Positions 1-51,456 are shown, numbered from the stretch's first letter. The stretch: 64,000 bases of DNA from Candidatus Caldarchaeum sp. (GCA_038885755.1 JAVZZH010000001.1:32001-96000), one strand, 5' to 3'. Notes: generated from the sequence alone by a model not told the origin. A program made the numbers and translations.

Positions 1-2461
1 TAGTCGGTACTCTCTGGTACTCCTCCAAGAACCTAGGCGGGCTCATCATGCCGACGATTACAGTGCCTCCCGAGACGTCTGACTCGATGTGGGCGAAACC
101 ATCTCTGTCGAGAACCCGGTAGTATTGCTCGCCCTTGTATCCTCTGACGGATGGGTCGGGTATCCCGAACTTGTCCCGCTGCCCTCCGGGGCTTTGACGT
201 GCCTCAACCTCATAGGTCCTCCAGCTCAGCGAAAGCCCCAGACCTCTCTCGACCGAAGACCTGTTCAGAACAACTGCGTCCTCCATGTTGTAGCCCTGCC
301 CCGTCAGTATAGCCACCACCATGTTCTGTCCAGAGGGCCGTGTGTTCATGCCCACGTAGTCTGAGCCACGCGTCGTGACTATCGGTTTCTGAGGGTAGAC
401 GAGCAGGTGGCTTCGTGAGTCTGTCCTGAGGGAGTAGTTTGAAGCGAATAATCCTAGGGCCTGCTTTCCCATAGCTCCTTCGTAGACGTTTCTCGGAGAC
501 TGGTTGTGCTCAGCGTAGGGGATTATGGAGGCCGCCACACCCAGCATGCCGTAGGGGCATATCTCCAGATGCGTGTGCTCGTTCTTGAGCTCTTCAGCCG
601 ACAGCGCCACGTAGGCGTTCTCCTCCTCTTCAGCGTCCAAGAACTCTATTATGCCGAGGCTTACGAGGTCTCTGAAGCGTGAGGTTTGGCGTTTGATGAG
701 TTCTACGTGCTGCTTCTGGATGGCTGGCTGGCCGTTCTCGACTATGATTAGAGGCCTGCGCACCCTTCCCTCGTCTGTGTTGATGACGACCTCCTGAACG
801 TGCTGGTAAGTGTACAAGGCGACGTTGATGTTCTGGCTGATGACGCCCTCACGTCTAAGTCTTCTCAGCTCGTTGACCAAAGCCGCTGCGTTGCTGTGAT
901 ACCCCTCCAACACGCCGTCTACGAAAACCTTCGCCGGGGGAGGAGGCTTTTTCTTCGCGATGACCTCGGTGATAGGTATGACGTTGAGCTGGAAAAGCTT
1001 GTCCCTCAGCTCTTTCTTGTTGCCTTGGAAGGACAGCTCCGCTGAAAGGGCTAGGTTCTTGACCAGCCCTGCGTTGCTCCCCTCGGGTGTTTCGCATGGA
1101 CACAGCCTTCCCCAGTGCGTTCCGTGAAGGTCTCTCGCCTCGAAGTGAGGCTGTCCCCGGCTGAGCGGCGACTGGACGCGTCTCAGATGGCTTAAGGTTG
1201 CCATGTAGTTGGTCCTGTTAAGGAGCTGCGTGACGCCCACCCTGCCTCCCGGCCAGTTTCCGGTTGCGAGGGCGTGTCTCACGTATTCCGAAACGATCCC
1301 GGGCCTCACGTAGGTCGCTATCTGGAGAGGCTGCCTCGTCGGGATGATGCGCTCCAGCTGGTACTTGAGGTCTCGGAGAAGCTTGACGAACGCCATCCGG
1401 TAGAGCTCGGTGAGGAGAGCTGACTCGAGCTTAAGCCTCTTGTTTGCGTAGTGGTCTCGGTCGTCGGGCTCCCTCAACCCAAGGCTTGTCTCTATCACTC
1501 TCCCGATCATTTCACATAGATGAATCGCTTTCTTCATCCTCGCGGCTTTATTCGTCCCCAGATGGATGAGGAACATCGAGTCGATCGTCTGCTCCGCTTT
1601 CTCAAGCCTGTATTCCTCGGCGTATCCGAAGGCTATCCTGCTGCCGATGTAGTCGAGTGCCTGCTCGGTTGTCTCTATTCCTTCAGCCTCTTGGAAGCTT
1701 GGCTCGAGAAGCTCTTGAACCTCTTTGAGCGGCGATATTGTGTTGGCTATTTCGAGGTCTTTAGTCATTCCCAGAGCCCTCAGCATGATTATGGCTGGAA
1801 CACCCTTGTAGATGCGTGAGAAGAATACCTTGACAGGGTTGTCCTTACGGTAGCTAACCTCCACCCTTACCTGACGACCGTGAGCTGCGGAAAGAACCAC
1901 GGCGGAGTACTGGGGCTTTCCATCCCCCTCCTTATGCGTCACTATTATCCTGTTAGGGGCCAGGTCCTCGATCGCGACTATCACTCTCTCAGAACCGTTT
2001 ATGATGAAGTAGCCTCCCGGGTCCAGCGGGTCTTCGCCTACCGCCATCAACTCCTCCGGAGTCATCTTGGACAGAGGGCATATGTCCGACTTTACGAGAA
2101 CGGGTATGTTTCCAACCCAGACTGTTTCGGGAGCGGCTAGGGGTTTGCCGTCCAAGAATATCCTCATCTTTACGTACAGCGGAGCCTCGTACGTGAGGTT
2201 CCTCAGCCTAGCTTCCGAAGGATACAGTTCTTGAGGAGTCGGGGCCAAGACCTCTCTCTTCACAGGCTTGCCGACTTCAACCTGCTCGAACTTCACCGTC
2301 ACTATTCCGTGCCTTGTCTTGATCTCCTGCTCGCCCAGCGAGTTGATCAGCTCCTGCAGCCCCTCCCTTATGAAGTAGTTGTAGGACTTTATGTGGTGCT
2401 GGACTAGGCCTTCCTCGTCTAGGTAGGACTTGAAGACCTCCCATAGGTCGTCTTTACTCAG
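1..2461 (-). CDS. rpoB: DNA-directed RNA polymerase subunit B, unsplit, 3' end beyond window start
   Basis: Manual translation: LSKDDLWEVFKSYLDEEGLVQHHIKSYNYF, EARLRNLTYEAPLY, DPLDPGGYFIINGSERV, HFEARDLHGTHWGRLCPCETPEGSNAGLVKNL, EHNQSPRNVYEGAMGKQ. Not in the ORF track because it has no stop in the window. Start is non-canonical; CTG at 2461 used. Confidence 0.97.
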   Translation of the reverse strand, partial: MSKDDLWEVFKSYLDEEGLVQHHIKSYNYFIREGLQELINSLGEQEIKTRHGIVTVKFEQVEVGKPVKREVLAPTPQELYPSEARLRNLTYEAPLYVKMRIFLDGKPLAAPETVWVGNIPVLVKSDICPLSKMTPEELMAVGEDPLDPGGYFIINGSERVIVAIEDLAPNRIIVTHKEGDGKPQYSAVVLSAAHGRQVRVEVSYRKDNPVKVFFSRIYKGVPAIIMLRALGMTKDLEIANTISPLKEVQELLEPSFQEAEGIETTEQALDYIGSRIAFGYAEEYRLEKAEQTIDSMFLIHLGTNKAARMKKAIHLCEMIGRVIETSLGLREPDDRDHYANKRLKLESALLTELYRMAFVKLLRDLKYQLERIIPTRQPLQIATYVRPGIVSEYVRHALATGNWPGGRVGVTQLLNRTNYMATLSHLRRVQSPLSRGQPHFEARDLHGTHWGRLCPCETPEGSNAGLVKNLALSAELSFQGNKKELRDKLFQLNVIPITEVIAKKKPPPPAKVFVDGVLEGYHSNAAALVNELRRLRREGVISQNINVALYTYQHVQEVVINTDEGRVRRPLIIVENGQPAIQKQHVELIKRQTSRFRDLVSLGIIEFLDAEEEENAYVALSAEELKNEHTHLEICPYGMLGVAASIIPYAEHNQSPRNVYEGAMGKQALGLFASNYSLRTDSRSHLLVYPQKPIVTTRGSDYVGMNTRPSGQNMVVAILTGQGYNMEDAVVLNRSSVERGLGLSLSWRTYEVEARQSPGGQRDKFGIPDPSVRGYKGEQYYRVLDRDGFAHIESDVSGGTVIVGMMSPPRFLEEYQRVPT

Positions 2462-2472
2462 CTGGTATGACG

Positions 2473-2748
2473 TTAGCCCTCACCCCAGACGACTCGGTAG
2501 TATACTGCTTCTCCAGCTGTTTCAGAGACTCGTGTTATTTTAATCAGGTCTCCCACCTTTGCCTTAAGCTTCTTGACCATCGGGTCCGACGGCAGGATGT
2601 ACGGCAGCTTGTCGGGAGTGACGCCTAGGCGTTTGAGAAGCTCCTCGGCCTCCGCCTGCGGCAACACCTCGTGCTTCGGAACAAGCACGTGCTCGGCTAT
2701 GTTCTTCTCAACAGTTGTCTCCTGTTTCTGCTTAGCCATACTTACCAC
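2473..2748 (-). CDS. rpoH: RNA polymerase subunit H (Rpo5)
   Basis: HVLVPKHEVL...LPYILPSDP...GDLIKITRVSETAGEAVYYRVV; canonical position upstream of rpoB. Confidence 0.97.
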   Translation of the reverse strand: MVSMAKQKQETTVEKNIAEHVLVPKHEVLPQAEAEELLKRLGVTPDKLPYILPSDPMVKKLKAKVGDLIKITRVSETAGEAVYYRVVWGEG

Positions 2749-2843
2749 CTGAAAACATTCAAGCTAGTTGATGAAAACCTCTGGCTATTAATAAGCCTTG
2801 AGTCGAGCAAACTTTTAAGAAACTCCTACAGCGTCAAACAAGT

Positions 2844-2921
2844 GGGCCCATAGCTCAGTCAGGTTAGAGCGGCCGGCTCTTAACCGGCAGGTCGCGGGAT
2901 CAAAGCCCGCTGGGCCCGCCA
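2844..2921 (+). tRNA. tRNA-Lys(CUU), CCA encoded
   Basis: Acceptor GGGCCCA/TGGGCCC, D stem GCTC/GAGC, anticodon arm GCCGG-CTCTTAA-CCGGC, T arm GCGGG-ATCAAAG-CCCGC, ends GCCA. Confidence 0.95.
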
Positions 2922-2974
2922 TATATCGTTGAAAGCATGTCAGAATTTCTCGCTGAATGCTGCGACTATCGTGA

Positions 2975-3739
2975 TTAGGCGGTGTAGGCTCGGCCTCTGT
3001 GTGTTTTAACCTTCTTGATTATTTCAGGAAGTTTTTCAAGGTTCTTCTCAGCCGCCGTCCCCGTCACCACTATGTCCGCCCCGGCTTCCGTCACCATGGC
3101 AGCGTCCTCAGCCGTCCTTATTCCACCTCCCACGATCACGGGAATGTCGACGGATTGTTTAACGGCTTTAATGGTTTCGGGCGGCAGGGGAGAAGCCGCT
3201 CCCGAGCCAGCTTCTAGGTAGAGGAAACGCATGCCTAGAAACTGTGCGGCCAGCCCGTAGCATGCAGCTACTTCACGGTGGTTCGGAGACAGGGGTAGGA
3301 CACGTCCCATGGCCGCGACAGTGCTTTCATGGCCGAAGACGACGTAGCCCATCGGTATCGCCTCGAGGTTGAATTGCTTGACTGTCAACGCCCCCTGAAG
3401 ATGCGCCCCCACAATATAATACCAGTCGATGCTGTTCAAAAGACTCATGAACCATATGGCGTCAGCATACCTCGAGATTGACTGGACGTTGTTCGGGAAG
3501 ATGATGACCGGCTTGTCCGTCATCCTCTTAATCTCCTTGATGTAGCTGTCGAGATGCTCCTGAGTATGGACTGTCGACCCACCAACCATGACGGCGTCAG
3601 AACCAAGCCTGCCGACGTAGCCAGCCAGCTCCCCCGCCCTCTCGAAAGACAAGTTCAACGGGTCGATCAAAGTCATGTGAAGCTTCTCACCCTGCTCCAG
3701 CTTCGAAACCAGATACTGCTCAACCCTGCCCCGTCTCAA
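2975..3739 (-). CDS. geranylgeranylglyceryl phosphate synthase
   Basis: HMTLIDP, DAVMVGGST, FLYLEAGSGA, VGGGIR motifs. Start placed at TTG 3739 behind GGGGAG rather than the ORF-track 3877. Confidence 0.93.
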   Translation of the reverse strand: MRRGRVEQYLVSKLEQGEKLHMTLIDPLNLSFERAGELAGYVGRLGSDAVMVGGSTVHTQEHLDSYIKEIKRMTDKPVIIFPNNVQSISRYADAIWFMSLLNSIDWYYIVGAHLQGALTVKQFNLEAIPMGYVVFGHESTVAAMGRVLPLSPNHREVAACYGLAAQFLGMRFLYLEAGSGAASPLPPETIKAVKQSVDIPVIVGGGIRTAEDAAMVTEAGADIVVTGTAAEKNLEKLPEIIKKVKTHRGRAYTA

Positions 3740-3977
3740 AAGCCTGCTCCCCTCTCGAAACCCTGTCATACCACTTTGTGTAGGCATCAACAACGCTGTA
3801 GGCAGGGTACCATGGAACACTGCCAGAAGCCCCACAACCACCGCAGACAACTTCAGCCGCTTCCGCGTTCTTCTCATGCTTGACCGTGACAGCGGTTGCT
3901 CCGCAAACAGGGCACGGGAATATGTTGGGAAACGGTTTAGGAGCCTTCTTGATTATCTTCCTCCTCTTCCTCCCCAT
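3720..3977 (-). CDS. elf1: transcription elongation factor Elf1 (zinc ribbon)
   Basis: MGRKRRK...FPCPVCG...VVCGGCG...VDAYTKWYD matches the Elf1 pattern; ATG at 3977. Confidence 0.9.
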   Translation of the reverse strand: MGRKRRKIIKKAPKPFPNIFPCPVCGATAVTVKHEKNAEAAEVVCGGCGASGSVPWYPAYSVVDAYTKWYDRVSRGEQAFETGQG

Positions 3978-4028
3978 CGGCGGTCTGGAAAAACTTAACA
4001 TATTTGATGGATTTAAACCCGACTGGGT

Positions 4029-4649
4029 ATGAGGAGGCCGAGGCTTTTCCAAGAAAAGAAGATCAGGCTGGCTGTGCTGACGAAGGACTTTAGGCTGGCT
4101 GCTCAAGTGGTCGAGGAGGCGGCGAGAAGAGGCCTGAGGGCGGACCACGTAATCGACCCGGCTGAAATACCTCTCTCGGCCAAGGCCGTGGTCATGAAGA
4201 AGGGGGAGTTCGGCGCGGTGAGCCGTCCACCAGCCCTGTACGCGGACGACTTCGTCTCAACAACATCGCTCGTCGACAGAGCCGTCGAGCTGGCCTATTC
4301 GAAGAAAACAGTTCGGAACGCAGTGATAGCCGTCGACCCGGGCAAAACAATCGGAGCCGCATACATGGCCGACGAACTCCTCCTCAGAACCGAGTCCTAC
4401 ACAGACCTGCACAGGTTCAGCCAGAGCGTCGCCGAGTTCTTCGAAACCCATCCAAACTCGAGACAGACAGTCCTGCTCGGCTCCGGAGCGCCGGAGTTCC
4501 GTGAGGAAATACTACGGGACATTCGTTCAAAAACACCTGCCGCAGTCGTCAAAAACGTCTCGGAAAAAAACACGTCAAAACTCTCCGGAGGAATCGACGA
4601 GCTTGCAGCAGCCATGCTGCCCAGAATGAAGCGACGTTCCGGAAAGTGA
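4029..4649 (+). CDS. hypothetical protein with C-terminal YqgF/RNase H-like domain
   Basis: IAVDPGKTIGAA, VLLGSG, VSEKNTS, DELAAA resemble YqgF-family motifs. Confidence 0.6.
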   Translation: MRRPRLFQEKKIRLAVLTKDFRLAAQVVEEAARRGLRADHVIDPAEIPLSAKAVVMKKGEFGAVSRPPALYADDFVSTTSLVDRAVELAYSKKTVRNAVIAVDPGKTIGAAYMADELLLRTESYTDLHRFSQSVAEFFETHPNSRQTVLLGSGAPEFREEILRDIRSKTPAAVVKNVSEKNTSKLSGGIDELAAAMLPRMKRRSGK

Positions 4650-4655
4650 TGGAGG

Positions 4656-5795
4656 GTGCGGCTTCCATCCGGCAAGACTTTGCTCATAAACGGCCCGGCT
4701 GTCATGAAAGTTTTGGAAGGCGAGGCCTCTATACTGAACTGCTCCCTAAAACAGAACAGAGAATACTTTCTCAGGCCTTGGAATAGATATCCGGTCTACG
4801 CTCATTCGGACTGCGAGCTCGGCTTGCGGATGGGGGAGGACTCGAGGGCCGAAGTGGTGGAGAGAGACGACACCGTCGACCTATGGCTGAGCAGAGTCAA
4901 CGAATGGAATGCCGGCGAGGTTGTGGGAGTGCTTGGAGGCGTTGACTCGGGGAAAACATCGTTCACAACCCTCGCAGTAAACACGCTTTCACGAAAGTTC
5001 GGCAAAGCACTCGTGCTCTCGCTCGACCCCGGCCAGACATACGTCTCTCCCCCCACACTGGTCTCCGCAACCGAGTTGACAAAATGCGTCCACGACCTTG
5101 CTGAATGCAAGCCTTGCTGGCTGAGGCCTGTCGGCTCGACGTCAGCGGCGAAGGCCGCGGCTGAGGTTTTGAAGGCCGCTGCGGAGTTTTCAGAGGCTTG
5201 GTCTAGAGACGTCTCGATGATAGTCGACATGGATGGCTGGGTTGACGACGGTGCCGCGGCCGCCCACAAGGCCGCTGTCCTGAAAACTCTAGGCTGCAGC
5301 AAGGCCGTCATACTGGGCGATGGTCTGGATAGGCTTCGACAGACACTCGAAACCACGGGGATTGAGGTTGTTTGTCTCCCCTCTTCCAAAAACGCGAAGG
5401 CAAGGGACAGCGCTGAGAGGAGAAAGATAAGGGAGTGGTTTTTCAGGAAACATCTAGGAAGTACAACTCTGAGGCTGATTCCAGCCACGTGGGTTAAGCT
5501 CGCCGTGGTTGGCTACGACGACCAAAAACCCCTAGAATACCTGAGAGACGTCTCCCAGAGGCTGGCAGCCACAGCCGAAGACCTTACGTCGAATCTTTGC
5601 AGAAACAGGACGGGGGTGATAGCCTACCTCTACGATGACCAGAAAAACTACAGGGGCATCGGGATAGTCTGCGGCTACGACTCGCAGAGAGCCGCCCTCA
5701 AGATTCTAACAGCGGTTGAGTCAGGCGTCAGATGGATATGGCTCGGCCGCATCGTTATAACGGCTGAGGGCGAGGAGATACTCGTCCTAGACTGA
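4656..5795 (+). CDS. Clp1/Grc3-family polynucleotide 5'-hydroxyl kinase
   Basis: GGVDSGKTS P-loop, LDPGQ, IVDMDGW, RKIRE lid. Confidence 0.85.
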   Translation: MRLPSGKTLLINGPAVMKVLEGEASILNCSLKQNREYFLRPWNRYPVYAHSDCELGLRMGEDSRAEVVERDDTVDLWLSRVNEWNAGEVVGVLGGVDSGKTSFTTLAVNTLSRKFGKALVLSLDPGQTYVSPPTLVSATELTKCVHDLAECKPCWLRPVGSTSAAKAAAEVLKAAAEFSEAWSRDVSMIVDMDGWVDDGAAAAHKAAVLKTLGCSKAVILGDGLDRLRQTLETTGIEVVCLPSSKNAKARDSAERRKIREWFFRKHLGSTTLRLIPATWVKLAVVGYDDQKPLEYLRDVSQRLAATAEDLTSNLCRNRTGVIAYLYDDQKNYRGIGIVCGYDSQRAALKILTAVESGVRWIWLGRIVITAEGEEILVLD

Positions 5796-6344
5796 TTTTA
5801 TGGGTTTGACGATGCTCCTTCGATGAAGAGCCGGGACATTACCTGCACAGATGGCAGCAACATCGCCGGCTTTGAAAGGACCGTAGCTCTGCAGGTCCTC
5901 TCCCACAAACTTTGGAAAATCCTTGAGGAAAACAACAACCTCATGCCTGTGCTCCGTTTCGTGGACCAGACTTCTCGGGTCGTTGAGACCGTTCATGATT
6001 TTAGACTCATGCTGCATCAGAATTCTCTGAACGGTGTTGAACGTCTTCTTCTCAAAAGGCAGCACGTTGTCTATGCTGGAAGCCTTGCTCGCCAGAGCCA
6101 TTATCCTCCTCATCCTTGTCCTCAACAGCGACTGCATTATTTTCTGCATCATCTCTAGTTCAGCAAGCCTGAGCTTGGTGTTTACAGAGTTTCGGTCGCT
6201 CAGACGCACCTGTCTCTTCACGACTGCGAAGTACTCCGCCAAATCGTTCAAGAGCTCTTCCGGAATCTTGACAAGCTCCTCGCTCGTCCTCTGCCTCTGC
6301 CAGAGCTCATAAAGCCTTTCGTAGACTTCCTCCATCCACGCCAT
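5787..6344 (-). CDS. GINS subunit, Gins15/Gins51 type
   Basis: Helical A domain (RMRRI) then B domain FPKFVGEDLQSYGPFKAGDV; directly downstream of priS. Confidence 0.85.
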   Translation of the reverse strand: MAWMEEVYERLYELWQRQRTSEELVKIPEELLNDLAEYFAVVKRQVRLSDRNSVNTKLRLAELEMMQKIMQSLLRTRMRRIMALASKASSIDNVLPFEKKTFNTVQRILMQHESKIMNGLNDPRSLVHETEHRHEVVVFLKDFPKFVGEDLQSYGPFKAGDVAAICAGNVPALHRRSIVKPIKSV

Positions 6345-6361
6345 ACTGCTTAACAGGTGGA

Positions 6362-7600
6362 TTAATGTTTAACCAAGCTAGCTAAGCCTCTGCACATCAG
6401 ATAAGCCGCTGCGAATGCCGGAACCTTAACACGTTCACCAGCCTTGTATGGGCCGAGGTTGAGACCGCCTAGCTCGAACGCCGGTGTTGGAAGAAGCTGC
6501 ACCTCAACAGGCTCGTCGCTCAAGACGACAGCGTCAACCAAAGGGTTGAAATCGTCGAGATCGTGGACTTGACAGGCAGACAAACCAGTCTTCCCGTTAA
6601 TGGTGTCGGTAAGCCTCAGCAACCTATGGACATCCGTCGACACTACTGTGTCGACATGGGATGCGTTTTCTTCTAGAACAATCTTCAGCAAGGACTGGAG
6701 CTGCGGTGAGCTTCGGCTATTCTTCAGCAGATGCCACATAGGTTTTTCAACCCAGTGCTTGGCTATTTCAGCCATGTATACGACGTCCCTTGTCTTCAGG
6801 AGGCGTGAAGCTTTACTTCTCGCTTCTTCGTCGCCAGCGGCCAGCCGGTTCAAAAAATCACGACAGCCTCTCGCCAGCCTTCCAGCCCACCCGCGGTCCC
6901 CATAGCCTGGCCCATCACCGGTCCTTGGGCTTGAGGAAAGTCCGTAGAACCTGACGTCTAGATGAGAGGCAGAGATGTACTCCACAACCTCCTGCCGAGC
7001 AGCTCGGTCGAGGCCCATAACATATTCGCCAGCCACGGCCAGATGATATCCGCGGTTGCCTGAAAAGCTGAGAGTCATCAACGACGCGCTCAGCCCAAAG
7101 TCTTCAATCAAGAAGTCAAGAAGCTTCTTCATCTCTCTCCTAGCCACGCCCAGACAGTTGTTGCACACCATGTTTATCTCAGCCAAGGCGCTACCGCAGG
7201 ACTTGCAGCTGGCTGCCTGCTCCGAATAGACTGAACCGCATCCGCTGCAGACGAAGTAGTCATGAAACCGTCTACAACTAGTCTCGAGATGGTCGGCGTC
7301 TATGTCGAAGATTAACTCTGCAGCCAGCCAGCCCTTCTCCTCCATCGGAGCCTGTGGATATTGGTAGAGGGCGGCTGAACGGTAGACGTGGAGGGGGACT
7401 TCCCTGACTAGAGTTTTCCTGAGCTCGTCAAAGGTTTTGAAAGAGAGGTGTCGGACCATGATTTTTCGCTCGAACGGTGTGTAGCCGAACTCGCGTTTCT
7501 CCAGGCTTTCAGGCCGGTAGGGGTTTGCGTAGCTGTGTTCGTAGTAGTTTTGGAACAGGCGTTGAACGAAGCGTGCTTCAGCCAGCCCTCTGAAGCTCAT
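6362..7600 (-). CDS. priS: DNA primase catalytic subunit
   Basis: REFG, ELIFDIDADH, FSGNRGYH, DVHRLLRL motifs. Confidence 0.95.
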   Translation of the reverse strand: MSFRGLAEARFVQRLFQNYYEHSYANPYRPESLEKREFGYTPFERKIMVRHLSFKTFDELRKTLVREVPLHVYRSAALYQYPQAPMEEKGWLAAELIFDIDADHLETSCRRFHDYFVCSGCGSVYSEQAASCKSCGSALAEINMVCNNCLGVARREMKKLLDFLIEDFGLSASLMTLSFSGNRGYHLAVAGEYVMGLDRAARQEVVEYISASHLDVRFYGLSSSPRTGDGPGYGDRGWAGRLARGCRDFLNRLAAGDEEARSKASRLLKTRDVVYMAEIAKHWVEKPMWHLLKNSRSSPQLQSLLKIVLEENASHVDTVVSTDVHRLLRLTDTINGKTGLSACQVHDLDDFNPLVDAVVLSDEPVEVQLLPTPAFELGGLNLGPYKAGERVKVPAFAAAYLMCRGLASLVKH

Positions 7601-8750: not shown

Positions 8751-8751
8751 T

Positions 8752-9578: not shown

Positions 9579-9653
9579 GCCGGGGTAACTCAGCCTGGCT
9601 CAGAGTGCGGGGCTCATAATCCCGTTGTCGTGGGTTCGAATCCCACCCCCGGC
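9579..9653 (+). tRNA. tRNA-Met(CAU), elongator-type body, abnormal anticodon arm
   Basis: Acceptor GCCGGGG/CCCCGGC, D stem ACTC/GAGT, T arm GTGGG-TTCGAAT-CCCAC, anticodon CAT at 9614-9616 in CGGG-CTCATAAT-CCCG. Confidence 0.88.
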
Positions 9654-9689
9654 ATGGGTTAAATTGTGTCGGGGTTGTGTGGTGTTGGG

Positions 9690-16303: not shown

Positions 16304-17020
16304 TTGAAACACGCACTCGTCGTCCGAGGGTTGAGGTTTTCCTACGACGGCCGTAGGAACGTTCTCGACGGCGTAGACCTTGAGCTTCATCAGGGAGAAA
16401 TTCTCGCCGTGATGGGTTTCTCAGGGTCCGGCAAGACAACCCTCCTCAAGGTAATCGCCGGGCTTCTCTACCCATACCAAGGAGTTGTCCAGCTGAACGT
16501 CGAAAGAGGTGGAGTAGGATACGTGCCTCAGAACATCGGGCTCGTCAAAAACAACTCAGCTCTTCAAAACGTCTTACTGGGGTCGCTCGGCCGTGTGGGA
16601 CGGTTGAACGGCCTCCTCGGCAGATTCCCGGAGGAAGAGCTGGAGAAAGCTCACCGGCTGCTTGCTGAGATGGGCCTCGCCGAGCTGGCCAACAGAAAAG
16701 CAAGCCTGCTGAGCGGGGGTGAAAGACAGAGGGTGGCTGTCGCGAGGTCTTTGATGCAGGCGCCCAGCATCCTGCTGGCCGACGAGTTCGTGTCAGACCT
16801 CGATGTAATCAACGCCATCGAGGTGATGACACTCACCCGCAGGATATGTAAGCGAAACAACATAGCTTTGATGATGACCATGCACGACACGTATCTCGTC
16901 AACAAATTCGCCGACAGAGCCGTCATCCTCAAAGACGGGCGAATAACCGCCGACATGGCCGCAGAAAAACTAGACATACACAGCCTCTCGTCAATACTCG
17001 GCGGAGGAGCAGCTTTATGA
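16304..17020 (+). CDS. phnC: PhnC-like ABC ATPase
   Basis: GFSGSGKTT, ALQNVLLGSL, LSGGERQRVAVAR, LLADE. Confidence 0.88.
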   Translation: MKHALVVRGLRFSYDGRRNVLDGVDLELHQGEILAVMGFSGSGKTTLLKVIAGLLYPYQGVVQLNVERGGVGYVPQNIGLVKNNSALQNVLLGSLGRVGRLNGLLGRFPEEELEKAHRLLAEMGLAELANRKASLLSGGERQRVAVARSLMQAPSILLADEFVSDLDVINAIEVMTLTRRICKRNNIALMMTMHDTYLVNKFADRAVILKDGRITADMAAEKLDIHSLSSILGGGAAL

Positions 17021-17794
17021 AATTTCGGTAAACAGCTCAGCCTCCTGCTCGTCATAGCTGCTTTCGTATACTCCGCCGCCAGCCTAGGCTTCGCAGACCC
17101 GGGAAGGCTTGGAAGGGGAGTGTCCAACCTTGGCAGCCTCGTGGCTGAGATGCTTCCGCCTGACCTCGGAGTGGCTTCGGAGGTCGCCGCAGCCCTCGCC
17201 GAAACCGTCCAGATAGCCTTCGTCGGAACAGTCATAGGCTTCCTCCTGTCGTTGCCGTTCTCAGCCCTCGCCCTCAGAAACATCTTTCCATCCATCCTCA
17301 CAACGACCGTACGCTCCCTGCTGGGCATCGTCCGAACAATCCCAGCACTCTTCTGGGCCGTGCTGTTCGTCATAGCCGTCGGGCTGGGCCCGTTCGCAGG
17401 CACGTTAGCCGTAGCCGTTTACTCCTTCGGATACCTGTCGAAGCTCTACTACGAAGCCTTCGAAGCAGTCGACGCCGAGGTGTTAGACGCCCTCCGGGTG
17501 ACGGGGGCCTCGAGGATTCTTTTGGTGAGGCATGCTGTCCTTCCCGAGTCGATGAACACTGTAGTCAGTCAGCTGTTGTTCATGTTCGAATACAACATCC
17601 GTTCGTCCGCTGTGCTGGGGTTCGTTGGAGCTGGGGGAGTCGGTTTCCTGATGGTCAGCTACATCGAGTCGCTGAGGTACAGCAGCCTCACAACCGTCCT
17701 AGTCTTCACTCTCGCAACAGTCATCGCCATAGACATCGTAAGCGGATACGTCAGGAGAAGGTTCTTGCCAGGATTCAGGCCAGCCTCAGCGTGA
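17017..17794 (+). CDS. phnE: PhnE-like ABC permease; 5' end irregular (ATG 17017 is 1 nt out of frame)
   Basis: RTIPALFWA, GLGPFAG, FEYNIRSSAVLGFVGAGG; frame stays open upstream of GTG 17120 back to 17021 and encodes a TM helix. Confidence 0.88.
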
Positions 17795-38923: not shown

Positions 38924-38926
38924 GCC

Positions 38927-44044: not shown

Positions 44045-44140
44045 GTCCCTGTCTCTCGTTGGACGAGGGCGGCATTAAAGATTGAGAGTTATCCGAAAAT
44101 GGAGTGAGGCTTAAATGACAGCTCGATGCGTTGAGCCGGG

Positions 44141-45103
44141 ATGTCCGAGGTCTGGGACATCAACCAGGACGTCAGAGTAATCGAGCTCGTCGGTAATGTG
44201 GATAAACCCGTGCGCTGTTTCTTGGTCAAGCAGGGAGACAGTCATGTGCTGTTGGACACAGGGTATCCGGAGACGGCTGAAGAACTGCTCAAAGCCATCG
44301 AAAAATACAGAGTCTCAACAACCCTGCTTACACATCTTCACCTCGACCATTCCGGCGGAGCGTCTGAAGTCAAGAAGAGAAAGCACACGTCGCTGGCGTA
44401 TCATGAAAGGGAGTACCAGACCCTCAAGATACTTTTAGAGGCTCAGCCGTGGCTGGACAAAATCCTTGGACCGGGAGACCATGAGTATTTCAGTAAATTT
44501 CTACAGTATGTAAGGAGTATTCCTGAGCCTGACATCTTCGCCTACGAGGGGATGAGTTTTGGTGGTTGGCGTGTGGTCTACACGCCGGGGCATACAGCGG
44601 GGCACGTCATCGTCGTAGGCGGGAGGGTGGGCATCACAGCCGACCTCATCCTAGAAAACGACACCACCAACGTAGCCTACATCCCTTTCGAAAACTACCA
44701 CCCCCTAACAGAGTTTCTGAAGAACCTAACCAAGCTGACAAAGATGAACCTCGAAACAATAGTTCCGTCGCACGGCCCCCTGATAAGGGACTGCAGGAAA
44801 AGAGCAGCTGAGATATTCCTCCACCACCGTCAGAGACTCGCGGAGGCCTCGAAGATCCTGACCACCCGAGAAACCCCGGCGCTCGAAGTGGCGCGTGAAA
44901 TAAGATGGTCGAAAGGCCCGTTCGACGAGCTTTCCGCAGTCGACAAATGGCTGGCTTACCTAGAGACTTTATCGCACCTAGACTTTCTCGTTGAGGCGGG
45001 TCTAGCTGTGGAGGTGTCGCAGACCGTTTACAGGCTGAACGAGGAAGGTGGCTGGAGCCAGGTCGAGGAGAAGCTTAAACGGCTTTCAGAAAACCTCTTC
45101 TGA
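44141..45103 (+). CDS. metallo-beta-lactamase-fold hydrolase with C-terminal winged helix
   Basis: LDTG, THLHLDHSGG, TPGHTAGH, PSHG. Confidence 0.88.
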   Translation: MSEVWDINQDVRVIELVGNVDKPVRCFLVKQGDSHVLLDTGYPETAEELLKAIEKYRVSTTLLTHLHLDHSGGASEVKKRKHTSLAYHEREYQTLKILLEAQPWLDKILGPGDHEYFSKFLQYVRSIPEPDIFAYEGMSFGGWRVVYTPGHTAGHVIVVGGRVGITADLILENDTTNVAYIPFENYHPLTEFLKNLTKLTKMNLETIVPSHGPLIRDCRKRAAEIFLHHRQRLAEASKILTTRETPALEVAREIRWSKGPFDELSAVDKWLAYLETLSHLDFLVEAGLAVEVSQTVYRLNEEGGWSQVEEKLKRLSENLF

Positions 45104-45154
45104 CCCTGTTAGGCAAGGGCAAACATTTTTATCAATCTAAGGCGAACTTCAGCC

Positions 45155-47401
45155 ATGCCTTCTCCGCGCACAACCTTATCCCTAGTTATTCTATCTATGG
45201 TGGTCGTCAGCCTTCTCCCTATGCAGGCTGTCTGGGCTGAGCGTGTTCAGCAGCGGGATGAAATCAGTGTTCTGCCGATAAAGGGCGAGCTCGTGGTCAA
45301 CGTGTTTCTCTACGACGTCAGTCTAAGCTGGTTCGAGGCAAGAGACCTCAGACACCTTCTCCAACTCCTCAGGGATACTAATGCGATAAGGCCCTTCGCC
45401 AGATCTCAATTCTATTCTAGGGGGACAGAATTTGTTCCGTTCGAGTTCGAAGTAAAACTAAACCTGATAGTTCCCTCAGCGAGGATACAGCAGGAGTTCC
45501 GCGAGCTTCTAAAATCTCGAGTTTCCCGGACACCGTACCAAATCGCTCAACAAGCAGTCGAGTTTGCCGTAGGCTATGGTATGCCTCTGGCTTGGACCGA
45601 CCAGACGATTAGAGCCCGGGACGCTCTATACGTGTTTTCATACCTGACGGAGAAATACTTTCCAGAGGTGGCTGGAAAATACGCCATCTTCCTTTTCTGC
45701 GGAATTCCTGCGATGGGAGGCGATAGGCCAGCCATCTACTACACTTACGGCCAGTCTCCTGACACGGGGGCATACCTGGCCGACTTCGGGCTCAGCATGT
45801 ACGGAGGTTCTTGGTGGGGCAGGTATTTCTACGTCGACCTTTGCTCATACCCGCCTAGGAGCTTCTATCAACAGCTCAAGCCGATATTCGAGCTTGGGAC
45901 GGCTGCGGAGCGTGTTTACCATGTTGCCGAGTTGATAGACATCATCATCGACATGGAGTTCGTCAAATCTCTAATTTACAAACCGCGGTACAACATTCAG
46001 ACGTTGTTTGACGTGATTGTCGTGGACGCTACCGTGGCAGGCGTGGGCTACGACATGATAGTTCGATATTTTGATTCTGAGTTGCTGTCGAAGGCTTTCA
46101 GAACCTTGATGCCCTACAACTTCTTCACGACCAGGCTGAGAGAGGTTGAACTGAGGGATGTGCCCGAGCTCAGTCAAGCCATACAGCACACCCCTGAAGG
46201 CATTCTGCTGCTTCCGGAGAAAGCGTACGACATTCTCAAAAGACGAGGCATGATTGACGAGTCGATTAGGGAATTTATGGACTATGTCCCAGCCATAATC
46301 CTCTACACCACGACAACATCATGGGTAAAAGAACCAAGCGTTCTGGGTGTTGCAGTAGGTAGGCAGGACGACCCGTCGCTCCCGTTGGCAGCCACTGGAG
46401 CCATATATCATGAAGTGCTTATCAAGCAGGGTCTAACGCCGCTCGTGATGCATGAAATAGGTCATACGTTGGGGCTTAGGCATCCGCATGACGATTTTGA
46501 CGAATACAGGAACTCGGGAGTAGGTTTTTTCGCGTTAACCTACTTCACCGAGACTGTTATGAGCTACAGCCAATCATGGATTGTAAGTCTTAACCGTGAG
46601 AAAATCTTTGAAGATCTTTACCCCATCAGGACTTTCTGGAGCATCTTCGACCTAGACAACATAGACCGGGCCGTCGTCTGTCTCCTGCTTCAAGAATATG
46701 AACAAAACCACCGTGAAATCATCCAGAGTCTCAAGAGCGCCGGACTCGACCTAACGGATGTTCCTGAAATCAAAGAGGCTCTTGATCTGGCGAGGCAGTA
46801 TAGCTTGACGGCGGTCGACGAGTTCAGGAACCATAATTATTTTGACAGGAAGTCCTTCAAGGGTTTAGGAGCTCAGCTCGTCTCAGCCTTTGACTATGCA
46901 TTCGTTGCTGCGCTGCAAACGGGGAACATAAAGGACTACTACCTGCCAGGCGTTCTCTACGAGGTGGGCAGGCTTGGAGCTCAGGCCTCGGCCTTGAGAC
47001 AAAATCTCTCGAACCTTAGGGCGGAGACGGAGAGCGCCCGTAGGGCGCTGGAAGAGTCTCAGCGGCTGCTTTCTCAAAAGAGGCAGGAGCTGCAGAGTCT
47101 GATGTCTGCTGGCGAGTCTCTGAACGCCGAGCTTCAGAGGGTTGAGCAAGCTGTTGCAGAAGTTAGGAGAGTTAGGGATGAGGTTTCGCGGAAGGAAGCT
47201 GAGCTGCAACGAGTTGTTAACTCTGTTAAACAGTCTGAGGAGGAACTGTCTTCTTTGAGGTCTCAGAACAACACGCTGTTAGCTGTTCTAGCTGTGGAGG
47301 TAGTTGTAGTCGCGGCTTTGGTGGTCTGGTTTAGGAGGAACAACCGTAGAGGGCTTCCCCCGCCGCCTCCACCGCCCCCCTTGCCTACAGCTTCCTCCTG
47401 A
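45155..47401 (+). CDS. membrane-anchored metzincin-type zinc protease, paralog A
   Basis: Signal peptide, HEIGHTLGLRH, Met-turn-like ETVMSY, coiled coil, C-terminal TM, poly-Pro tail. Confidence 0.85.
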   Translation: MPSPRTTLSLVILSMVVVSLLPMQAVWAERVQQRDEISVLPIKGELVVNVFLYDVSLSWFEARDLRHLLQLLRDTNAIRPFARSQFYSRGTEFVPFEFEVKLNLIVPSARIQQEFRELLKSRVSRTPYQIAQQAVEFAVGYGMPLAWTDQTIRARDALYVFSYLTEKYFPEVAGKYAIFLFCGIPAMGGDRPAIYYTYGQSPDTGAYLADFGLSMYGGSWWGRYFYVDLCSYPPRSFYQQLKPIFELGTAAERVYHVAELIDIIIDMEFVKSLIYKPRYNIQTLFDVIVVDATVAGVGYDMIVRYFDSELLSKAFRTLMPYNFFTTRLREVELRDVPELSQAIQHTPEGILLLPEKAYDILKRRGMIDESIREFMDYVPAIILYTTTTSWVKEPSVLGVAVGRQDDPSLPLAATGAIYHEVLIKQGLTPLVMHEIGHTLGLRHPHDDFDEYRNSGVGFFALTYFTETVMSYSQSWIVSLNREKIFEDLYPIRTFWSIFDLDNIDRAVVCLLLQEYEQNHREIIQSLKSAGLDLTDVPEIKEALDLARQYSLTAVDEFRNHNYFDRKSFKGLGAQLVSAFDYAFVAALQTGNIKDYYLPGVLYEVGRLGAQASALRQNLSNLRAETESARRALEESQRLLSQKRQELQSLMSAGESLNAELQRVEQAVAEVRRVRDEVSRKEAELQRVVNSVKQSEEELSSLRSQNNTLLAVLAVEVVVVAALVVWFRRNNRRGLPPPPPPPPLPTASS

Positions 47402-49511
47402 AGAAGACTACGTAAACCCCAGCGGCAGCTACTAGGACAACCGACAAAGCCATCAACACAAAGCCGGTCGTCCTCAGTCCCCCCGCCTCCGCAACCAACT
47501 CACTCAACCTCCTCCCCTCTTCACCAAGACTCCTGTCAAGCTCGGCTCTCCTAGACCGCAGCTGCTCCAGCTGAGCCGCCTCCTCCGAAAGCATCCTAAT
47601 CCTAGCCCTCAACTCCTCGTTAGTCTCAAGAGCCTTCTTAACAGCCTCCTCTACATTTTTCAACTCCATAGCGGTTCTTTCGCTCTCCTGCTTAAGCCTG
47701 CTCAGCGTGGCTGTGAGGCTGGAAATCTCCGCCTGAAGCGACTCCAGTAGTTGCGTCAACCTTTCGTTCTGCTTCATCACACCCTCCGTGTAAGTCTTCG
47801 CCAGCTCTGTCAACGCCATGGCCATGAACGCATAGTCAAAAGACGACGTGAGCTGTGCTCCCAACCCGGTATACTCAAACCTGTCGAGATAGCTGTGCGA
47901 CCGGAAAAGTTCTACAGACCTGTCTGCTAGGGTCTTCGCTATGTTGAGTGCCTCTGTCAGGGTTTTAATGTCGTCCAGCCTCAGACCTGCTCCGGAGACT
48001 GCGTCAACTATGTCCCTGTAGTTCTGCTCGTAGGTCGAAAGAAGTATTGAGATGATGGCTCTGTCTATTGCGTCTAGGTCGAAGATGCTCCAGTAGGTTT
48101 TGACGGGGTAGTATCCTTCTTTTATGGTTCTTCGCTTAACAGCCTCAACCCAAGTAGTGGAGTAGCTCATGTATGTTTCGATGGACATGGTGTAGATCAT
48201 GCTTCTCACGGATCTTCCCGCAACTTCGTCGAAATCATCGTGCGGGTGTCTCAAGCCTAGGACATGACCTATCTCATGCGCAACAGTAGTGGCCAAACCT
48301 TTGTAAAAGAGTAAATAGTATGAAGTGCCCGCTACGGCCACTGCTCCAAATCTCGGGTCTTCTGGGTCGGGTAATGCGATTCCAAGAGCATCATCTTCAG
48401 GGTCTTCCACGTAGACTCTTGTGTCGTAGTCTGTGACGACGACTATTGCTGGCACGTATTGGTAATCTCCCTCTCCGGGCGACAGCTTGTTCGCTCTTTT
48501 CAGCAAGTCATATGCCATGCTCGCTTCGACCAAAGCCTTGTTTCTTGCTTGGTCCAGTGTGATTATGTTCATGAAGCCGGGGACTTCCTCTGCCCTGACA
48601 TATCTAACGGTGAAAGTATACAGGTTGTAAGGGGTGAGAGTTATGAGAGCCTGCTCCACCGCCTCCAAGTCGAACCTATCGACTAGAAGTGCGAAGTTCA
48701 GCCCCGCTCTGGTGGCGTCCACCACCAAAACGTCTACGAGAACCTGAAGATTGTATCTTGGTATGTAGATGGTTGATTTGACGAACTGCATGTCGATTAT
48801 CTCGTCGACGTAGTTTATTAGAAGAGCCAGTCTTTCACGGGAGGTGTTTATGTTTTGGATGGGTGGGTAATCTGCATACAGGCTGAGGGCGCAGAGGTCT
48901 ACGAACACGTATCTGCCGTACCATGTGCCGCCGTACATGTTCAGCAGAATCTCCCCGCCGTATCTTCCCGTTTCAGGAAGCTGTCCAAAAGTATGGTAGA
49001 CGGGTGGTGAGCCCAGAGCCCTTGCTCCGCAGATAAAGAATATCACATGGTCGTCTAAGATGTCGGGGTAGTGTTTTCTAGAAAGGTCGACGAGCATTTT
49101 TAAAGCAGTTGGCGCGTGGATCGAAGCTATGCCGTCTTTGACTCCCTTGGTCTCGAGAAGCTCTCGGGGCGCTCCTAGGTTGAGGCTGCGGAGGTTCTGC
49201 CTAAACTCCTCAAGCTGAGCCAGCCTGAATTCTCTCGCGGAAAGCTGTACATCGAATTCGAAAGGTGCAAAGGTTGACCCATAAAGGTCAAGGGCTGATT
49301 TAGCGGTGTCTCTCACCCCTGCAGAAACAGCTCCTAGCAGTTGGTTGATGTCGCTGGCTCCGAACCATGTGGGGTCGACGTCTATGAAGACGAGCACAAC
49401 GTTGAGCGGTGCTTTGATGGGTAGTACTCGGTAGTCTTGCTGTCCGAAACTTGGTTGGGGGGCGAGAGAGACGAGAATGATGAAGGCTGCGACTAGTGCT
49501 GAGCACTTCAT
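47385..49511 (-). CDS. membrane-anchored metzincin-type zinc protease, paralog B
   Basis: Signal peptide from ATG 49511 (MKCSALVAAF), HEIGHVLGLRH, ETYMSY, coiled coil, C-terminal TM plus RRKL. Confidence 0.85.
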   Translation of the reverse strand: MKCSALVAAFIILVSLAPQPSFGQQDYRVLPIKAPLNVVLVFIDVDPTWFGASDINQLLGAVSAGVRDTAKSALDLYGSTFAPFEFDVQLSAREFRLAQLEEFRQNLRSLNLGAPRELLETKGVKDGIASIHAPTALKMLVDLSRKHYPDILDDHVIFFICGARALGSPPVYHTFGQLPETGRYGGEILLNMYGGTWYGRYVFVDLCALSLYADYPPIQNINTSRERLALLINYVDEIIDMQFVKSTIYIPRYNLQVLVDVLVVDATRAGLNFALLVDRFDLEAVEQALITLTPYNLYTFTVRYVRAEEVPGFMNIITLDQARNKALVEASMAYDLLKRANKLSPGEGDYQYVPAIVVVTDYDTRVYVEDPEDDALGIALPDPEDPRFGAVAVAGTSYYLLFYKGLATTVAHEIGHVLGLRHPHDDFDEVAGRSVRSMIYTMSIETYMSYSTTWVEAVKRRTIKEGYYPVKTYWSIFDLDAIDRAIISILLSTYEQNYRDIVDAVSGAGLRLDDIKTLTEALNIAKTLADRSVELFRSHSYLDRFEYTGLGAQLTSSFDYAFMAMALTELAKTYTEGVMKQNERLTQLLESLQAEISSLTATLSRLKQESERTAMELKNVEEAVKKALETNEELRARIRMLSEEAAQLEQLRSRRAELDRSLGEEGRRLSELVAEAGGLRTTGFVLMALSVVLVAAAGVYVVFFRRKL

Positions 49512-49595
49512 CACAGCCAGAGGCCGCCACCGCCATAAATACTTTGGAGGAATGATGCTGAAAAGATTTAAGAGCGTCGTGGTGCCTGGGTAGGC

Positions 49596-49652
49596 TGCGA
49601 TGATGAGTCTGACCAGGCTGAAGCGATGACTGCGATCTTGAGCTCTGAGCAC
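49596..49652 (+). ncRNA. C/D box guide sRNA
   Basis: C ATGATGA 49600-49606, D' CTGA 49618-49621, C' GCGATGA 49623-49629, D CTGA 49645-49648, TGC/GCA terminal stem, BRE/TATA-like AAAAGATTTAAG at 49561-49572. Confidence 0.85.
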
Positions 49653-49695
49653 GTTTGTGGAAAAGGTAATAGATTGGCCTGGGTTGAGCTTCTTC

Positions 49696-50175
49696 ATGAT
49701 TGCTGACCAGTTGTTGGCGACGGCGGCCGCCTCCGCTGTGTTCGCCGTGGCTGCTGTGGTTTCTAGGTTTGTTATTCGACGCAGGTTTCGGCAGGAGCAT
49801 GGTAAGGTTCTGTACCTTGCTCTGCTGCTTCTCTCAGCGGTCTACGTTGGTTATGTCGCTTATCTCTGGAGGTTTTTCGAGTTCGTGGTGGGTGTGCTGG
49901 CGACGGCCGGGGCCCTTGGGCTTCTGCTGGCGCTTTCCCTCGTTCCATGGGTGATGGACATCTTCTCAGGCATCTCGGTAGTGCTTGACCCTCGGATAAA
50001 CATCGGTAGCGAGGTCGAGGTTGACGGCAAGCGTGGCAAGATCGTAGAAATAACGTTGACCCGTACGGTTGTTTCGGGCGATGAATGTATTATCCTTGTG
50101 CCCAACCGCATGTTCCGAGACTCCGTCGTCGTCGTTTACTCGACGAAGCCGAGGGAGAGATATTTCAAGGCTTAG
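49696..50175 (+). CDS. small mechanosensitive channel MscS-family protein
   Basis: 3 TM segments then DIFSGI, IGSEVEV..GKIVEI..TRT, VPN. Confidence 0.8.
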   Translation: MIADQLLATAAASAVFAVAAVVSRFVIRRRFRQEHGKVLYLALLLLSAVYVGYVAYLWRFFEFVVGVLATAGALGLLLALSLVPWVMDIFSGISVVLDPRINIGSEVEVDGKRGKIVEITLTRTVVSGDECIILVPNRMFRDSVVVVYSTKPRERYFKA

Positions 50176-50179
50176 ACGA

Positions 50180-51400
50180 TTACTCGGAAATGACAGGCTT
50201 GTTATTCAACACTTCTAGAATGCTGTCCAGCTTGGCTGGAACGACGTGAGTATGTCCAACGACTCTGTCAACGACCTCGTCAACCTTGAACCCGGCCCCG
50301 GTGACGCAGCAGACGACTTCGTCGCCTGAGTCGATGACCCCCTCCTCCCTCATTTTCTTGACGGCCGCCACGGTGACAGCGCCTCCCGGTTCTGCGAATA
50401 AACCCGCGTGTCTGCTCAGGAGCTTGATGGCTTCTATGGTTTCCTCGTCCGAAACAGTCTCGCAGGTTCCTCCCGTGCTTCTGGCTATCGAGAGGGCGTA
50501 GTTGCCGTCTCCCGGCGTGCCTATGGCAAGGCTTTTCACGATTGTTTCAGGTTTCTTCACAGGCCTGACCTCGTCCCATCCGGCGGCGAAGGACCTCGAA
50601 ATGGGGGAGCATCCTTCTGGCTGCACTCCGTGGAAAACAGTGTCCGCCGAGTTGAGGACACCGAACATCTCAAGCTCCCTAAGGGCTTTGTGCAGAGCTC
50701 CGAACAAGGCGCCGCTGGCCATGGGTACAACGATGTGCTGGGGAGCCCTCCAGCCGAGGCTCTCGACTATCTCGAACATCATAGTCTTCGACCCCTCGAC
50801 ATAGTAGGGCCTGAGGTTCACATTCACTATTCCAACCTCGCTCCGTTCGACGAGAAGATAAGCAAGCCTGTTGACGTCGTCGTAGGTTCCGTCGACCAGC
50901 ACGACGTTCCCGCCGTAGATAGAGGCTTGCTTGACTTTAGGCAGCTCGACTGTGTCCGGCATGAGTACGAAACCTGTCAACCCCGCAGCCGTTGCGTGGG
51001 CTAGAGTTGCTGAAGCAAGGTTTCCCGTCGAAGCGCAGCCGACTGCTGTTATCCCAAACTCCTTGGCTTTCGAGACGGCTACGGACGCCGGCCTGTCCTT
51101 GAACGAGAACGTCGGGTTGACCGTGTCGTTCTTTATGTACAGGTTCCTGAGCCCTAGCGCCTTTCCCAGCTCGCTAGCTCTTACGAGCGGTGTTCCTCCA
51201 GCTCCTATGTCGACCCTGTGCTGTTTCTCGACGGGCAGAAGCTCCGAATATCTCCAAACACCTCTTACGCCGCTGTACGAAACCCTGTCAACCCAGCCGT
51301 CCTTAAGCTCGTCGTAAACGACGTCGAGGGCGCCGAGACATCTGTCGCAGACGTTTCTAAGCTCGGGGGGGAACTCAGCTTTACAGTTCCTGCAAACCAG
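50180..51400 (-). CDS. thrC: threonine synthase; N-terminus extends 140 codons beyond ORF-track call, start non-canonical
   Basis: Upstream of TTG 50980 the frame reads LVCRNC...CDRC...VWRYSELLP...GGTPL...NPTFSFKDR...CASTGN, including the PLP lysine motif; CTG at 51400 used. Confidence 0.93.
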   Translation of the reverse strand: MVCRNCKAEFPPELRNVCDRCLGALDVVYDELKDGWVDRVSYSGVRGVWRYSELLPVEKQHRVDIGAGGTPLVRASELGKALGLRNLYIKNDTVNPTFSFKDRPASVAVSKAKEFGITAVGCASTGNLASATLAHATAAGLTGFVLMPDTVELPKVKQASIYGGNVVLVDGTYDDVNRLAYLLVERSEVGIVNVNLRPYYVEGSKTMMFEIVESLGWRAPQHIVVPMASGALFGALHKALRELEMFGVLNSADTVFHGVQPEGCSPISRSFAAGWDEVRPVKKPETIVKSLAIGTPGDGNYALSIARSTGGTCETVSDEETIEAIKLLSRHAGLFAEPGGAVTVAAVKKMREEGVIDSGDEVVCCVTGAGFKVDEVVDRVVGHTHVVPAKLDSILEVLNNKPVISE

Positions 51401-51456
51401 CCTTAGCTCCGACCACCTTGGTTTTCAGCGGAACGCGCTGCTTATAAACCTATGCG

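Follow-up and report, generated by a model that had tools for sequence, protein, structure and literature searches.

The 64,000-nucleotide (nt) stretch of Candidatus Caldarchaeum DNA analyzed here (the window; G000:C1:32001-96000) carries three protein-coding genes, rpoB, phnE, and thrC, that have no ordinary in-frame start codon. The source genome, G000, is a 1.33-Mb archaeal assembly of 10 contigs with 55% G+C, and the window was found in runs labelled hot-spring metagenomes. We defined a canonical start as an in-frame ATG, GTG, or TTG and compared the three genes with those of relatives: 13 genomes of the genus, 48 genomes of the order for thrC (including L088, whose thrC 5′ end was read separately), and 30 relatives for rpoB. 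The evidence for all three genes is comparative sequence, from which we infer the codon or slip that the ribosome uses.

An earlier note on this DNA had reported that rpoB, phnE, and thrC lack an ordinary in-frame start, and this is borne out: the window reads as described, and related genomes share the arrangement. The note proposed either relaxed start-codon selection or a +1 slip right after an out-of-frame NTG, the latter linked to an abnormal tRNA-Met. Our comparisons point instead to three unrelated start-site peculiarities of real, conserved genes, a combined explanation on which our confidence is evenly divided. In this explanation, rpoB would start at a near-cognate ACG, phnE would require a +1 frameshift shortly after its start, and thrC would initiate at a CUA positioned by its ribosome-binding site.

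Each of the three cases could be "repaired" by deleting one base of a short homopolymer, as if sequencing or assembly errors had inserted 1 nt after a true start codon. We consider such errors very improbable because related genomes, assembled independently, share the arrangement: it is conserved for thrC in 13 of 13 genus genomes, for phnE in all 12 genus genomes holding the gene, and for rpoB in G000 and its close relative G004. In addition, contigs from another DNA sample and from two metatranscriptome runs span the rpoH/rpoB and phnC/phnE junctions, two of the three sites, with 0 gaps among the matches listed. These results agree with the view of the earlier note that a high indel error rate is unlikely. 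For phnE and thrC, nonsynonymous divergence (dN) is 0.09-0.26 (0.15-0.26 for phnE alone) and synonymous divergence (dS) is saturated. Since dN is far below dS, both genes are under purifying selection.

The affected genes are few. G000 contains 1,235 coding-like open reading frames (ORFs) of at least 100 codons, in 78 of which the first canonical start is preceded by at least 30 codons; in 14 of these 78, the 5′ part is itself coding-like. Inspection left seven start-less genes: thrC, rpoB, phnE, an MFS transporter, an M20-type hydrolase, a livF-like ATPase, and rps9. The seven other ORFs with long start-less 5′ regions were dropped as having a plausible ATG further in or as antisense shadows. 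Within the window only rpoB, phnE, and thrC are affected. When the window was compared with the syntenic 72 kb of G003 (73 ORF pairs, ~80% protein identity), only phnE and thrC were start-less in both genomes, and ten other flagged window genes had ordinary starts at homologous codons. With about seven affected genes, we are dealing with a handful of cases and with no genome-wide change of code. Relaxed starts are not explained by loss of the fidelity factor aIF1/SUI1, whose domain (PF01253) is present in 30 of 31 genomes, including G000.

Shine-Dalgarno spacing and probable near-cognate starts

The G000 assembly lacks 16S rRNA, and the anti-Shine-Dalgarno (anti-SD) sequence was therefore read from four genus genomes, in which the 16S 3′ end is ...GGATCACCTCC. 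A set of 261 unambiguous G000 starts yielded 48 GGTG motifs within 25 nt upstream. GGTG ends 5-8 nt before the start in 28 of the 48 sites, with a mode of 7 nt, and the spacing equals 1 modulo 3 in 21. The distance from the end of GAGG to the start peaks at 9-10 nt. These distributions suggest that ribosomes of this lineage are positioned by a GGTG or GGAGG Shine-Dalgarno (SD) element ~7 nt before the start. A literature search combining Caldiarchaeum with Shine-Dalgarno returned nothing relevant.

This spacing accounts for much of the pattern that the earlier note had seen. The modal spacing of 7 nt comprises two codons and one base, and the GTG of a GGTG SD placed at this distance is therefore always 1 nt out of frame. 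The layouts are GTG-A-GGG-CTA followed by ACG in rpoB and GTG-G-TCG-GAG followed by CTA in thrC. Likewise, GTG-A and ATG-A are equivalent to G or A plus TGA, the in-frame stop that opens the ORF. An NTG 1 nt out of frame is indeed present in all three genes, but for rpoB and thrC it is an arithmetic by-product of GGTG spacing and does not exceed chance.

The features at the rpoB start are as follows.

2480..2486, minus strand: SD GGGGTGA of rpoB, within the last rpoH codons (TGG GGT GAG, encoding W G E), at the modal GGTG-N7-start spacing
2471..2473, minus strand: ACG, the proposed rpoB start, 7 nt after GGTG, from the orthologue alignment
2..2479, minus strand: rpoB reading frame (ORF), running off the window; 1119 codons in the genome

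The rpoB frame opens after TGA 2482-2480 and reads GGG CTA ACG TCA TAC CAG CTG; the GTG lies at 2483-2481, and the first in-frame canonical codon occurs at 2302, 59 codons in. In relatives, the codon aligned to the ACG is ATG (G006) or GTG (G003, G005, and G007), and 28 of 30 have a canonical start at or within a few codons of the aligned position. The 5′-end alignments thus extend the lack of an ordinary start to relatives for thrC and phnE, but not for most rpoB orthologues, the ACG being confined to G000 and G004. It is a one-mismatch codon at the start position of the orthologues, with normal GGTG-N7 spacing. It also shares one base with the rpoH stop (TAA 2475-2473, giving TAACG), much like the overlapping stops and starts of translationally coupled genes (ATGA, TAATG).

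From these features, rpoB most likely starts at the near-cognate ACG 2473-2471. Initiation would occur 7 nt after GGGGTGA, with the GTG belonging to the SD and to rpoH codons. A slip after this GTG is contradicted because the GTG lies within the Gly-Glu codons of RpoH. One point weighs against the ACG: the codon immediately upstream, CTA in G000 and ATA in G004, could serve as the start instead. The in-frame CTGs at 2461, 17045, and 51400 that the earlier note put forward as possible starts are present in the window; they are not conserved in relatives (the one at 2461 aligns with CTA or CTC) and are too distant from the ribosome-binding sites.

Similar starts were found elsewhere in G000. In rps9 (locus L107), encoding S9 and located outside the window, a CTG (G000:C1:296181-296183) stands at GGTG-N7, and the aligned codon in five genus relatives is ATG (three genomes), GTG (one), or TTG (one), all at N7. 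This gene is likely to represent a CUG start of an essential gene. The MFS transporter (G000:C1:2698-3849, locus L108) has no canonical start for 48 codons. Its candidate start, ATC in G000 and G004 or ATA in G005, aligns with TTG in G009 and G011, and G006 offers no obvious candidate. Based on this alignment, the transporter probably starts at ATC in G000. Collectively, the alignments suggest that the lineage has a few fixed near-cognate starts, namely ACG, CUG, and probably AUH. Relaxed start selection, which the earlier note regarded as the simpler reading, thus holds for rpoB and is reinforced by rps9 and the MFS gene, but it is not one cause for all three genes of the window.

Near-cognate initiation is known from the AUU start of bacterial infC. 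The rpoB ACG and the rps9 CTG are alike in being one-mismatch codons at the start position of their orthologues with normal SD spacing. A preprint reports that Escherichia coli initiates with Met at 0.01-3% of the AUG level from many codons, including non-near-cognates, with low-level initiation measured from AUA, AUC, AUU, CUG, and ACG (bioRxiv 10.1101/063800). In contrast to such reporter leakage, the rpoB and rps9 codons would be natural, fixed starts of essential archaeal genes, as judged from sequence. A search of titles and abstracts found no description of natural ACG or CUG starts in archaea.

Two further start-less genes were noted in G000. The M20-type amidohydrolase (G000:C1:156722-157966, minus strand, locus L105) reads AGGTGA-ACA-ACG-CTG and reaches no canonical start within 37 codons. 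Its CTG, at the GGTG-N7 position, is a candidate start; five genus genomes yielded no orthologue of the gene for comparison. The livF-like ABC ATPase (G000:C2:223529-224269, minus strand, locus L106) has no canonical start before its Walker A motif. A GTA (G000) or ATA (G005) lies one base past the livG stop, and the conserved stretch upstream of the gene is the livG C-terminus in another frame.

A candidate +1 frameshift in phnE

Three features define the start region of phnE.

17003..17009, plus strand: SD GGAGGAG in the end of phnC; with GAGG ending 9 nt before it, a normal register, the out-of-frame ATG occupies the start position
17017..17031, plus strand: mini-frame ATG AAA TTT CGG TAA, identified by conservation; ATG is the proposed start and TTT_C (17023-17026) the proposed slip site
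17021..17794, plus strand: phnE coding frame, 257 codons and a stop, which would be entered at GGT 17027 after the slip; intact in 12 genomes and supported by dN/dS

The gene reads ATG (17017-17019)-A-AAT TTC GGT; in frame, no canonical codon occurs before GTG 17120, 33 codons in. All 12 genus genomes holding phnE contain NTGAAATTTCG, where N is A in eight, G in one, and T in three, and never C. Read in the frame of the NTG, the same region is NTG AAA TTT CGN in 12 of 12 genomes, with CGG in seven and CGC in five; a stop follows CGN directly in 11 and three codons later in one. The sequence TGAAATTTCG forms a 10-nt invariant run, compared with 8 nt for the longest invariant run inside phnE. 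Invariant codon columns make up 16 of 256 in phnE and include codons 1 and 2; among the 117 columns with an invariant amino acid, 16 keep the same codon. In five other genera, nine phnE orthologues begin at an ordinary in-frame ATG, TTG, or GTG.

The phnC TGA overlaps the ATG (ATGA) in nine of the 12 genomes. The other three retain TTGA even though their phnC, in a different frame, terminates 8 nt upstream. The TGA is therefore not conserved as a phnC stop, and a read-through fusion cannot be general.

In the mechanism we propose, phnE would be initiated at the SD-positioned out-of-frame ATG 17017, and the ribosome would read AAA UUU. With CGG (and then UAA) waiting in the A site, tRNA-Phe would slip +1 from UUU to UUC, yielding MKFGKQLS..., and ribosomes that do not slip would release MKFR. 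The waiting codons, CGG or CGC, are rarer than AGG in G000, though only moderately rare (7.6 and 5.1 per 1000 codons, compared with 29.5). Three features of phnE match what is expected of a UUU_CGN frameshift: the site has a slippery UUU_C, frame 0 alone holds a start and the +1 frame alone the conserved protein, and the site is conserved beyond coding need. That phnE depends on an obligatory +1 slip at UUU_C, two codons past its start, is a proposition that, from the comparative data, we would neither favor nor disfavor. A +1 slip is in this sense plausible for phnE, although not directly after initiation as the earlier note had it, a placement that is contradicted for rpoB and thrC. The expected product changes accordingly, as a slip at UUU_C would give MKFGKQ instead of the MNFGKQ that had been predicted.

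One known +1 frameshift site is CUU_AGG_C of yeast Ty1. The sites closest to that of phnE are UCC_UUU_CGU and UUU_Ynn, described as +1 shift sites in influenza A PA-X, in bacteria (UUU_Ynn), and in Yersinia YopN-TyeA in the accessible part of a 2016 review (PMC5009743). The phnE site resembles these in that UUU_C precedes an Arg CGN codon rarer than AGG/AGA, tRNA-Phe re-pairs perfectly on UUC, the heptanucleotide is invariant across species, and there is no flanking RNA structure. It differs in that the shift would be obligatory for the sole product of a cellular archaeal gene. Unlike UCC_UUU_CGU, the phnE site lies two codons after the start, has AAA and not UCC in the E site, and is followed by a stop right after CGN. 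The phnC TGA overlaps the ATG as in translational coupling, but the phnE ATG opens a four-codon dead-end frame. For archaea, the same part of the review describes +1 shifting only as "very likely" for one halovirus (PMC5009743).

Several observations weigh against a slip at this site. In-frame TTT_CGN is not notably avoided in ordinary G000 genes (40 observed versus 49 expected), so the site alone is no strong shifter. No conserved RNA structure was found around the phnE site (RNAalifold, -0.59 kcal/mol). Because the 12 genomes are kin, few independent changes underlie the finding of A, G, or T but never C at N. Finally, the viral UCC_UUU_CGU cassette works with very low efficiency, according to the review (PMC5009743).

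The gene might instead be expressed without a frameshift, through an SD-directed, non-canonical in-frame start near AAU/UUC, through re-initiation at AUC, CUG, or AUA after MKFR, or through UGA read-through to a PhnC-PhnE fusion. The lineage appears to tolerate ACG, CUG, and probably AUC starts, codon 6 of phnE is ATC or CTG in eight of 12 genomes, and phnC and phnE share a frame across the TGA in nine of 12, all of which speak for such routes. However, no in-frame near-cognate codon is conserved, as codon 6 is CTC in G000, G002, and G004 and GTT in L072, and the candidates lie at least 25 nt from the SD. Read-through, moreover, is not general, given the three genomes with phnC in the other frame, and all of these routes leave the invariant TGAAATTTCG and the restriction of N to A, G, or T unexplained. 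We therefore regard expression without a frameshift as unlikely, though still to be taken seriously.

A metagenome scan for GGNGGA-N9-TGAAATTTCG gave at least 120 matches. None of the matches listed encodes a PhnE homologue by tblastn, and they were set aside as chance hits that added no further phnE variants.

The thrC start site across the order

The region upstream of thrC contains the following features.

51442..51448, minus strand: thrC promoter TATA box (TTTATAA), whose first T precedes GGTG by 31 nt; position conserved across the order
51411..51419, minus strand: AAGGTGGTC, an SD-like element predicted at or near the mRNA 5′ end from conservation and 16S pairing; contains the GTG that the earlier note took for the start
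51404..51406, minus strand: CTA, the proposed thrC initiation site, 7 nt after GGTG, from the 48-genome alignment
50180..51403, minus strand: rest of thrC (threonine synthase), under purifying selection by dN/dS

The gene reads GTG (51416-51414)-G-TCG GAG CTA, and the first in-frame canonical codon lies 145 codons downstream. All 48 order genomes share one layout: a TATA box, ~23-25 nt, a GGTG- or GGAGG-like motif, 6-7 nt, and CTN. The motif in most leaders is AGGTG[A/G]T[C/T], which is complementary over 8 nt to the 16S end ...GGATCACCTCC; AGGTGGTC of the window's thrC leader pairs over 8 nt with the 16S 3′ end, with one G-U pair. CTN is CTA in 44 genomes, CTC in three, and CTG in one. From the upstream stop to the Cys motif, 27 of the 48 genomes lack any in-frame canonical start. 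In 18, the four codons preceding CTN include an in-frame GTG or TTG, and in three (L012, L017, and L093) a canonical codon lies 3-6 codons after CTN. By these counts, the odd thrC start site is order-wide.

The thrC orthologues exclude a slip directly after the GTG as a general mechanism: a one-base skip past the NTG runs into a stop in L083 (GTG-A-TAG) and L100 (TTG-A-TAA), and five genomes of genus g14 have no NTG in any frame at the site. An in-frame TGA stands directly before CTA in L056, and an in-frame stop lies 0-1 codon before CTN in L056, L083, L100, and L095. The spacer also varies within one genus (g7), being 6 nt in L020 and 7 nt in L019 and L082. Such stops and changes of spacer length would be neutral if translation started at CTN and lethal if it started at GTG, and the best reading is therefore SD-directed CUA initiation. 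The thrC leaders of genus g7 also differ by one G (GGGG in L019 and L082, GGG in L020), which moves the GTG of the SD in or out of frame.

In this reading, the thrC promoter would place GGUG at or near the mRNA 5′ end, and initiation would occur at CUA 7 nt downstream, directed by the SD on a codon that matches the initiator anticodon at its middle base alone. A comparable arrangement, TATA-N23-30-GGTG-N5-10-canonical start (ATG, TTG, or GTG), was found in at least 16 G000 genes (e.g., C2:106990 and C2:238193), which would have very short leaders beginning with the SD site. The thrC region has a conserved SD at a fixed spacing from one codon and, in 27 of 48 genomes, no usable canonical start. 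The ability of E. coli to initiate from many codons, non-near-cognates among them, makes CUA initiation conceivable. We judge SD-directed initiation of thrC at CUA to fall just short of an even chance.

Several features count against CUA as the start. It matches the initiator anticodon CAU at the middle base only and, as a two-mismatch codon, falls outside the usual near-cognate set. In distant genera, CTA is replaced by CTC or CTG, likewise codons for Leu, which would fit a translated Leu codon and a start further upstream, and in 18 genomes the in-frame GTG or TTG just upstream may be the real thrC start. Furthermore, the distance from the TATA box to the GTG is 32 nt, typical of the larger leaderless class in G000, in which the TATA box lies 28-33 nt before the start.

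This distance raises the alternative of a leaderless or near-leaderless start at the GUG of GGUG, after which a +1 shift within the first codons would restore the frame. In genera g8, g13, and g15 and in L020, this GTG is already in frame, and L019 and L082 read GUG GUC GGG G, a possible slip run (GGG_G) in genus g7. However, the window's own genus reads GUG GUC GGA GCU A, which offers no re-pairing site, and the stop after GTG+1 in L083 and the absence of NTG from the five g14 genomes do not agree with such a start. The remaining form of this alternative is a start at a different near-cognate codon (AAG or AGG following CTA, or, in other genera, AUA), but none of these candidates is conserved (AAA in G006). 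Overall, we consider an origin of ThrC at the GUG or at one of these codons improbable, and SD-directed initiation at CUA remains our preferred reading.

The tRNA-Met gene and the question of a common cause

One tRNA gene in the window bears on a possible link among the three starts.

9579..9654, plus strand: tRNA-Met(CAU), elongator type (G1:C72), with a normal 7-nt anticodon loop (ARAGORN, Rfam RF00005)

Frameshift-suppressor tRNAs with an expanded, 8-nt anticodon loop are known, such as those of the sufD type, and the earlier note had assigned an 8-nt loop to this tRNA-Met. Both ARAGORN and Rfam (RF00005, 62.8 bits) instead give a 5-bp anticodon stem (CGGGG/UCCCG) and a standard 7-nt loop, CUCAUAA, with no sign of the 8-nt loop of a suppressor. 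The surplus bases lie in the D loop and the variable region, and it is because of these bases that the anticodon begins at position 37. The likeness to sufD-type suppressors therefore goes no further than the suggestion itself. Of the three CAU tRNAs in G000, one carries the initiator pair A1:U72 and the other two G1:C72; we take them to be the usual archaeal set of initiator, elongator Met, and Ile2. The tRNA being normal, the proposed link to the gene starts has no basis, and tRNA-Met plays no part in any of the three start peculiarities.

High-depth contigs in two DNA runs miss one base in the tRNA-Met D loop, at window position 9600. Their depth is 276-700, compared with ~30 for this organism, and they are probably the same tRNA from a more abundant relative. 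Elsewhere in the genome, a 95-nt tRNA-like gene (G000:C1:588047-588141) was assigned no anticodon by ARAGORN. Its acceptor stem resembles that of the CAU tRNA at C1:410086, and it may be an intron-containing tRNA.

A lineage-wide +1 slip right after an out-of-frame NTG, driven by the tRNA-Met, would unite the three genes, all of which do have an NTG one base out of frame; in phnE, this NTG is even conserved as A/G/T-TG. Several observations argue against it. The tRNA has a 7-nt loop; the rpoB GTG forms part of the RpoH Gly-Glu codons, with the in-frame ATG or GTG of relatives lying two codons beyond it; and in thrC orthologues, a one-base skip after NTG meets a stop (L083 and L100) or finds no NTG at all (the five g14 genomes). 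A GTG in GGTG at 7-nt spacing is out of frame by arithmetic, and only three genes of the window and ~7 of 1,235 long ORFs in the genome are affected. We find such a common mechanism scarcely credible. The more specific proposal, an obligatory +1 frameshift at UUU_CGN in phnE (12 species of one genus) together with a CUA-initiated thrC in at least eight genera, chosen by a strong 5′-proximal SD rather than by codon-anticodon pairing, is one that we advance tentatively and with clearly less than even confidence.

Gene finders accept only ATG, GTG, and TTG and are expected to truncate or miss rpoB, rps9, thrC, and phnE in these hot-spring archaea. If the phnE slip is true, it would be a cellular, obligatory +1 frameshift in Archaea, for which the accessible part of the 2016 review gives only a probable viral case (PMC5009743). 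If thrC starts at CUA across most of the order, the ribosome-binding site would outweigh the codon in start choice in these thermophiles, which bears on the stringency of archaeal initiation.

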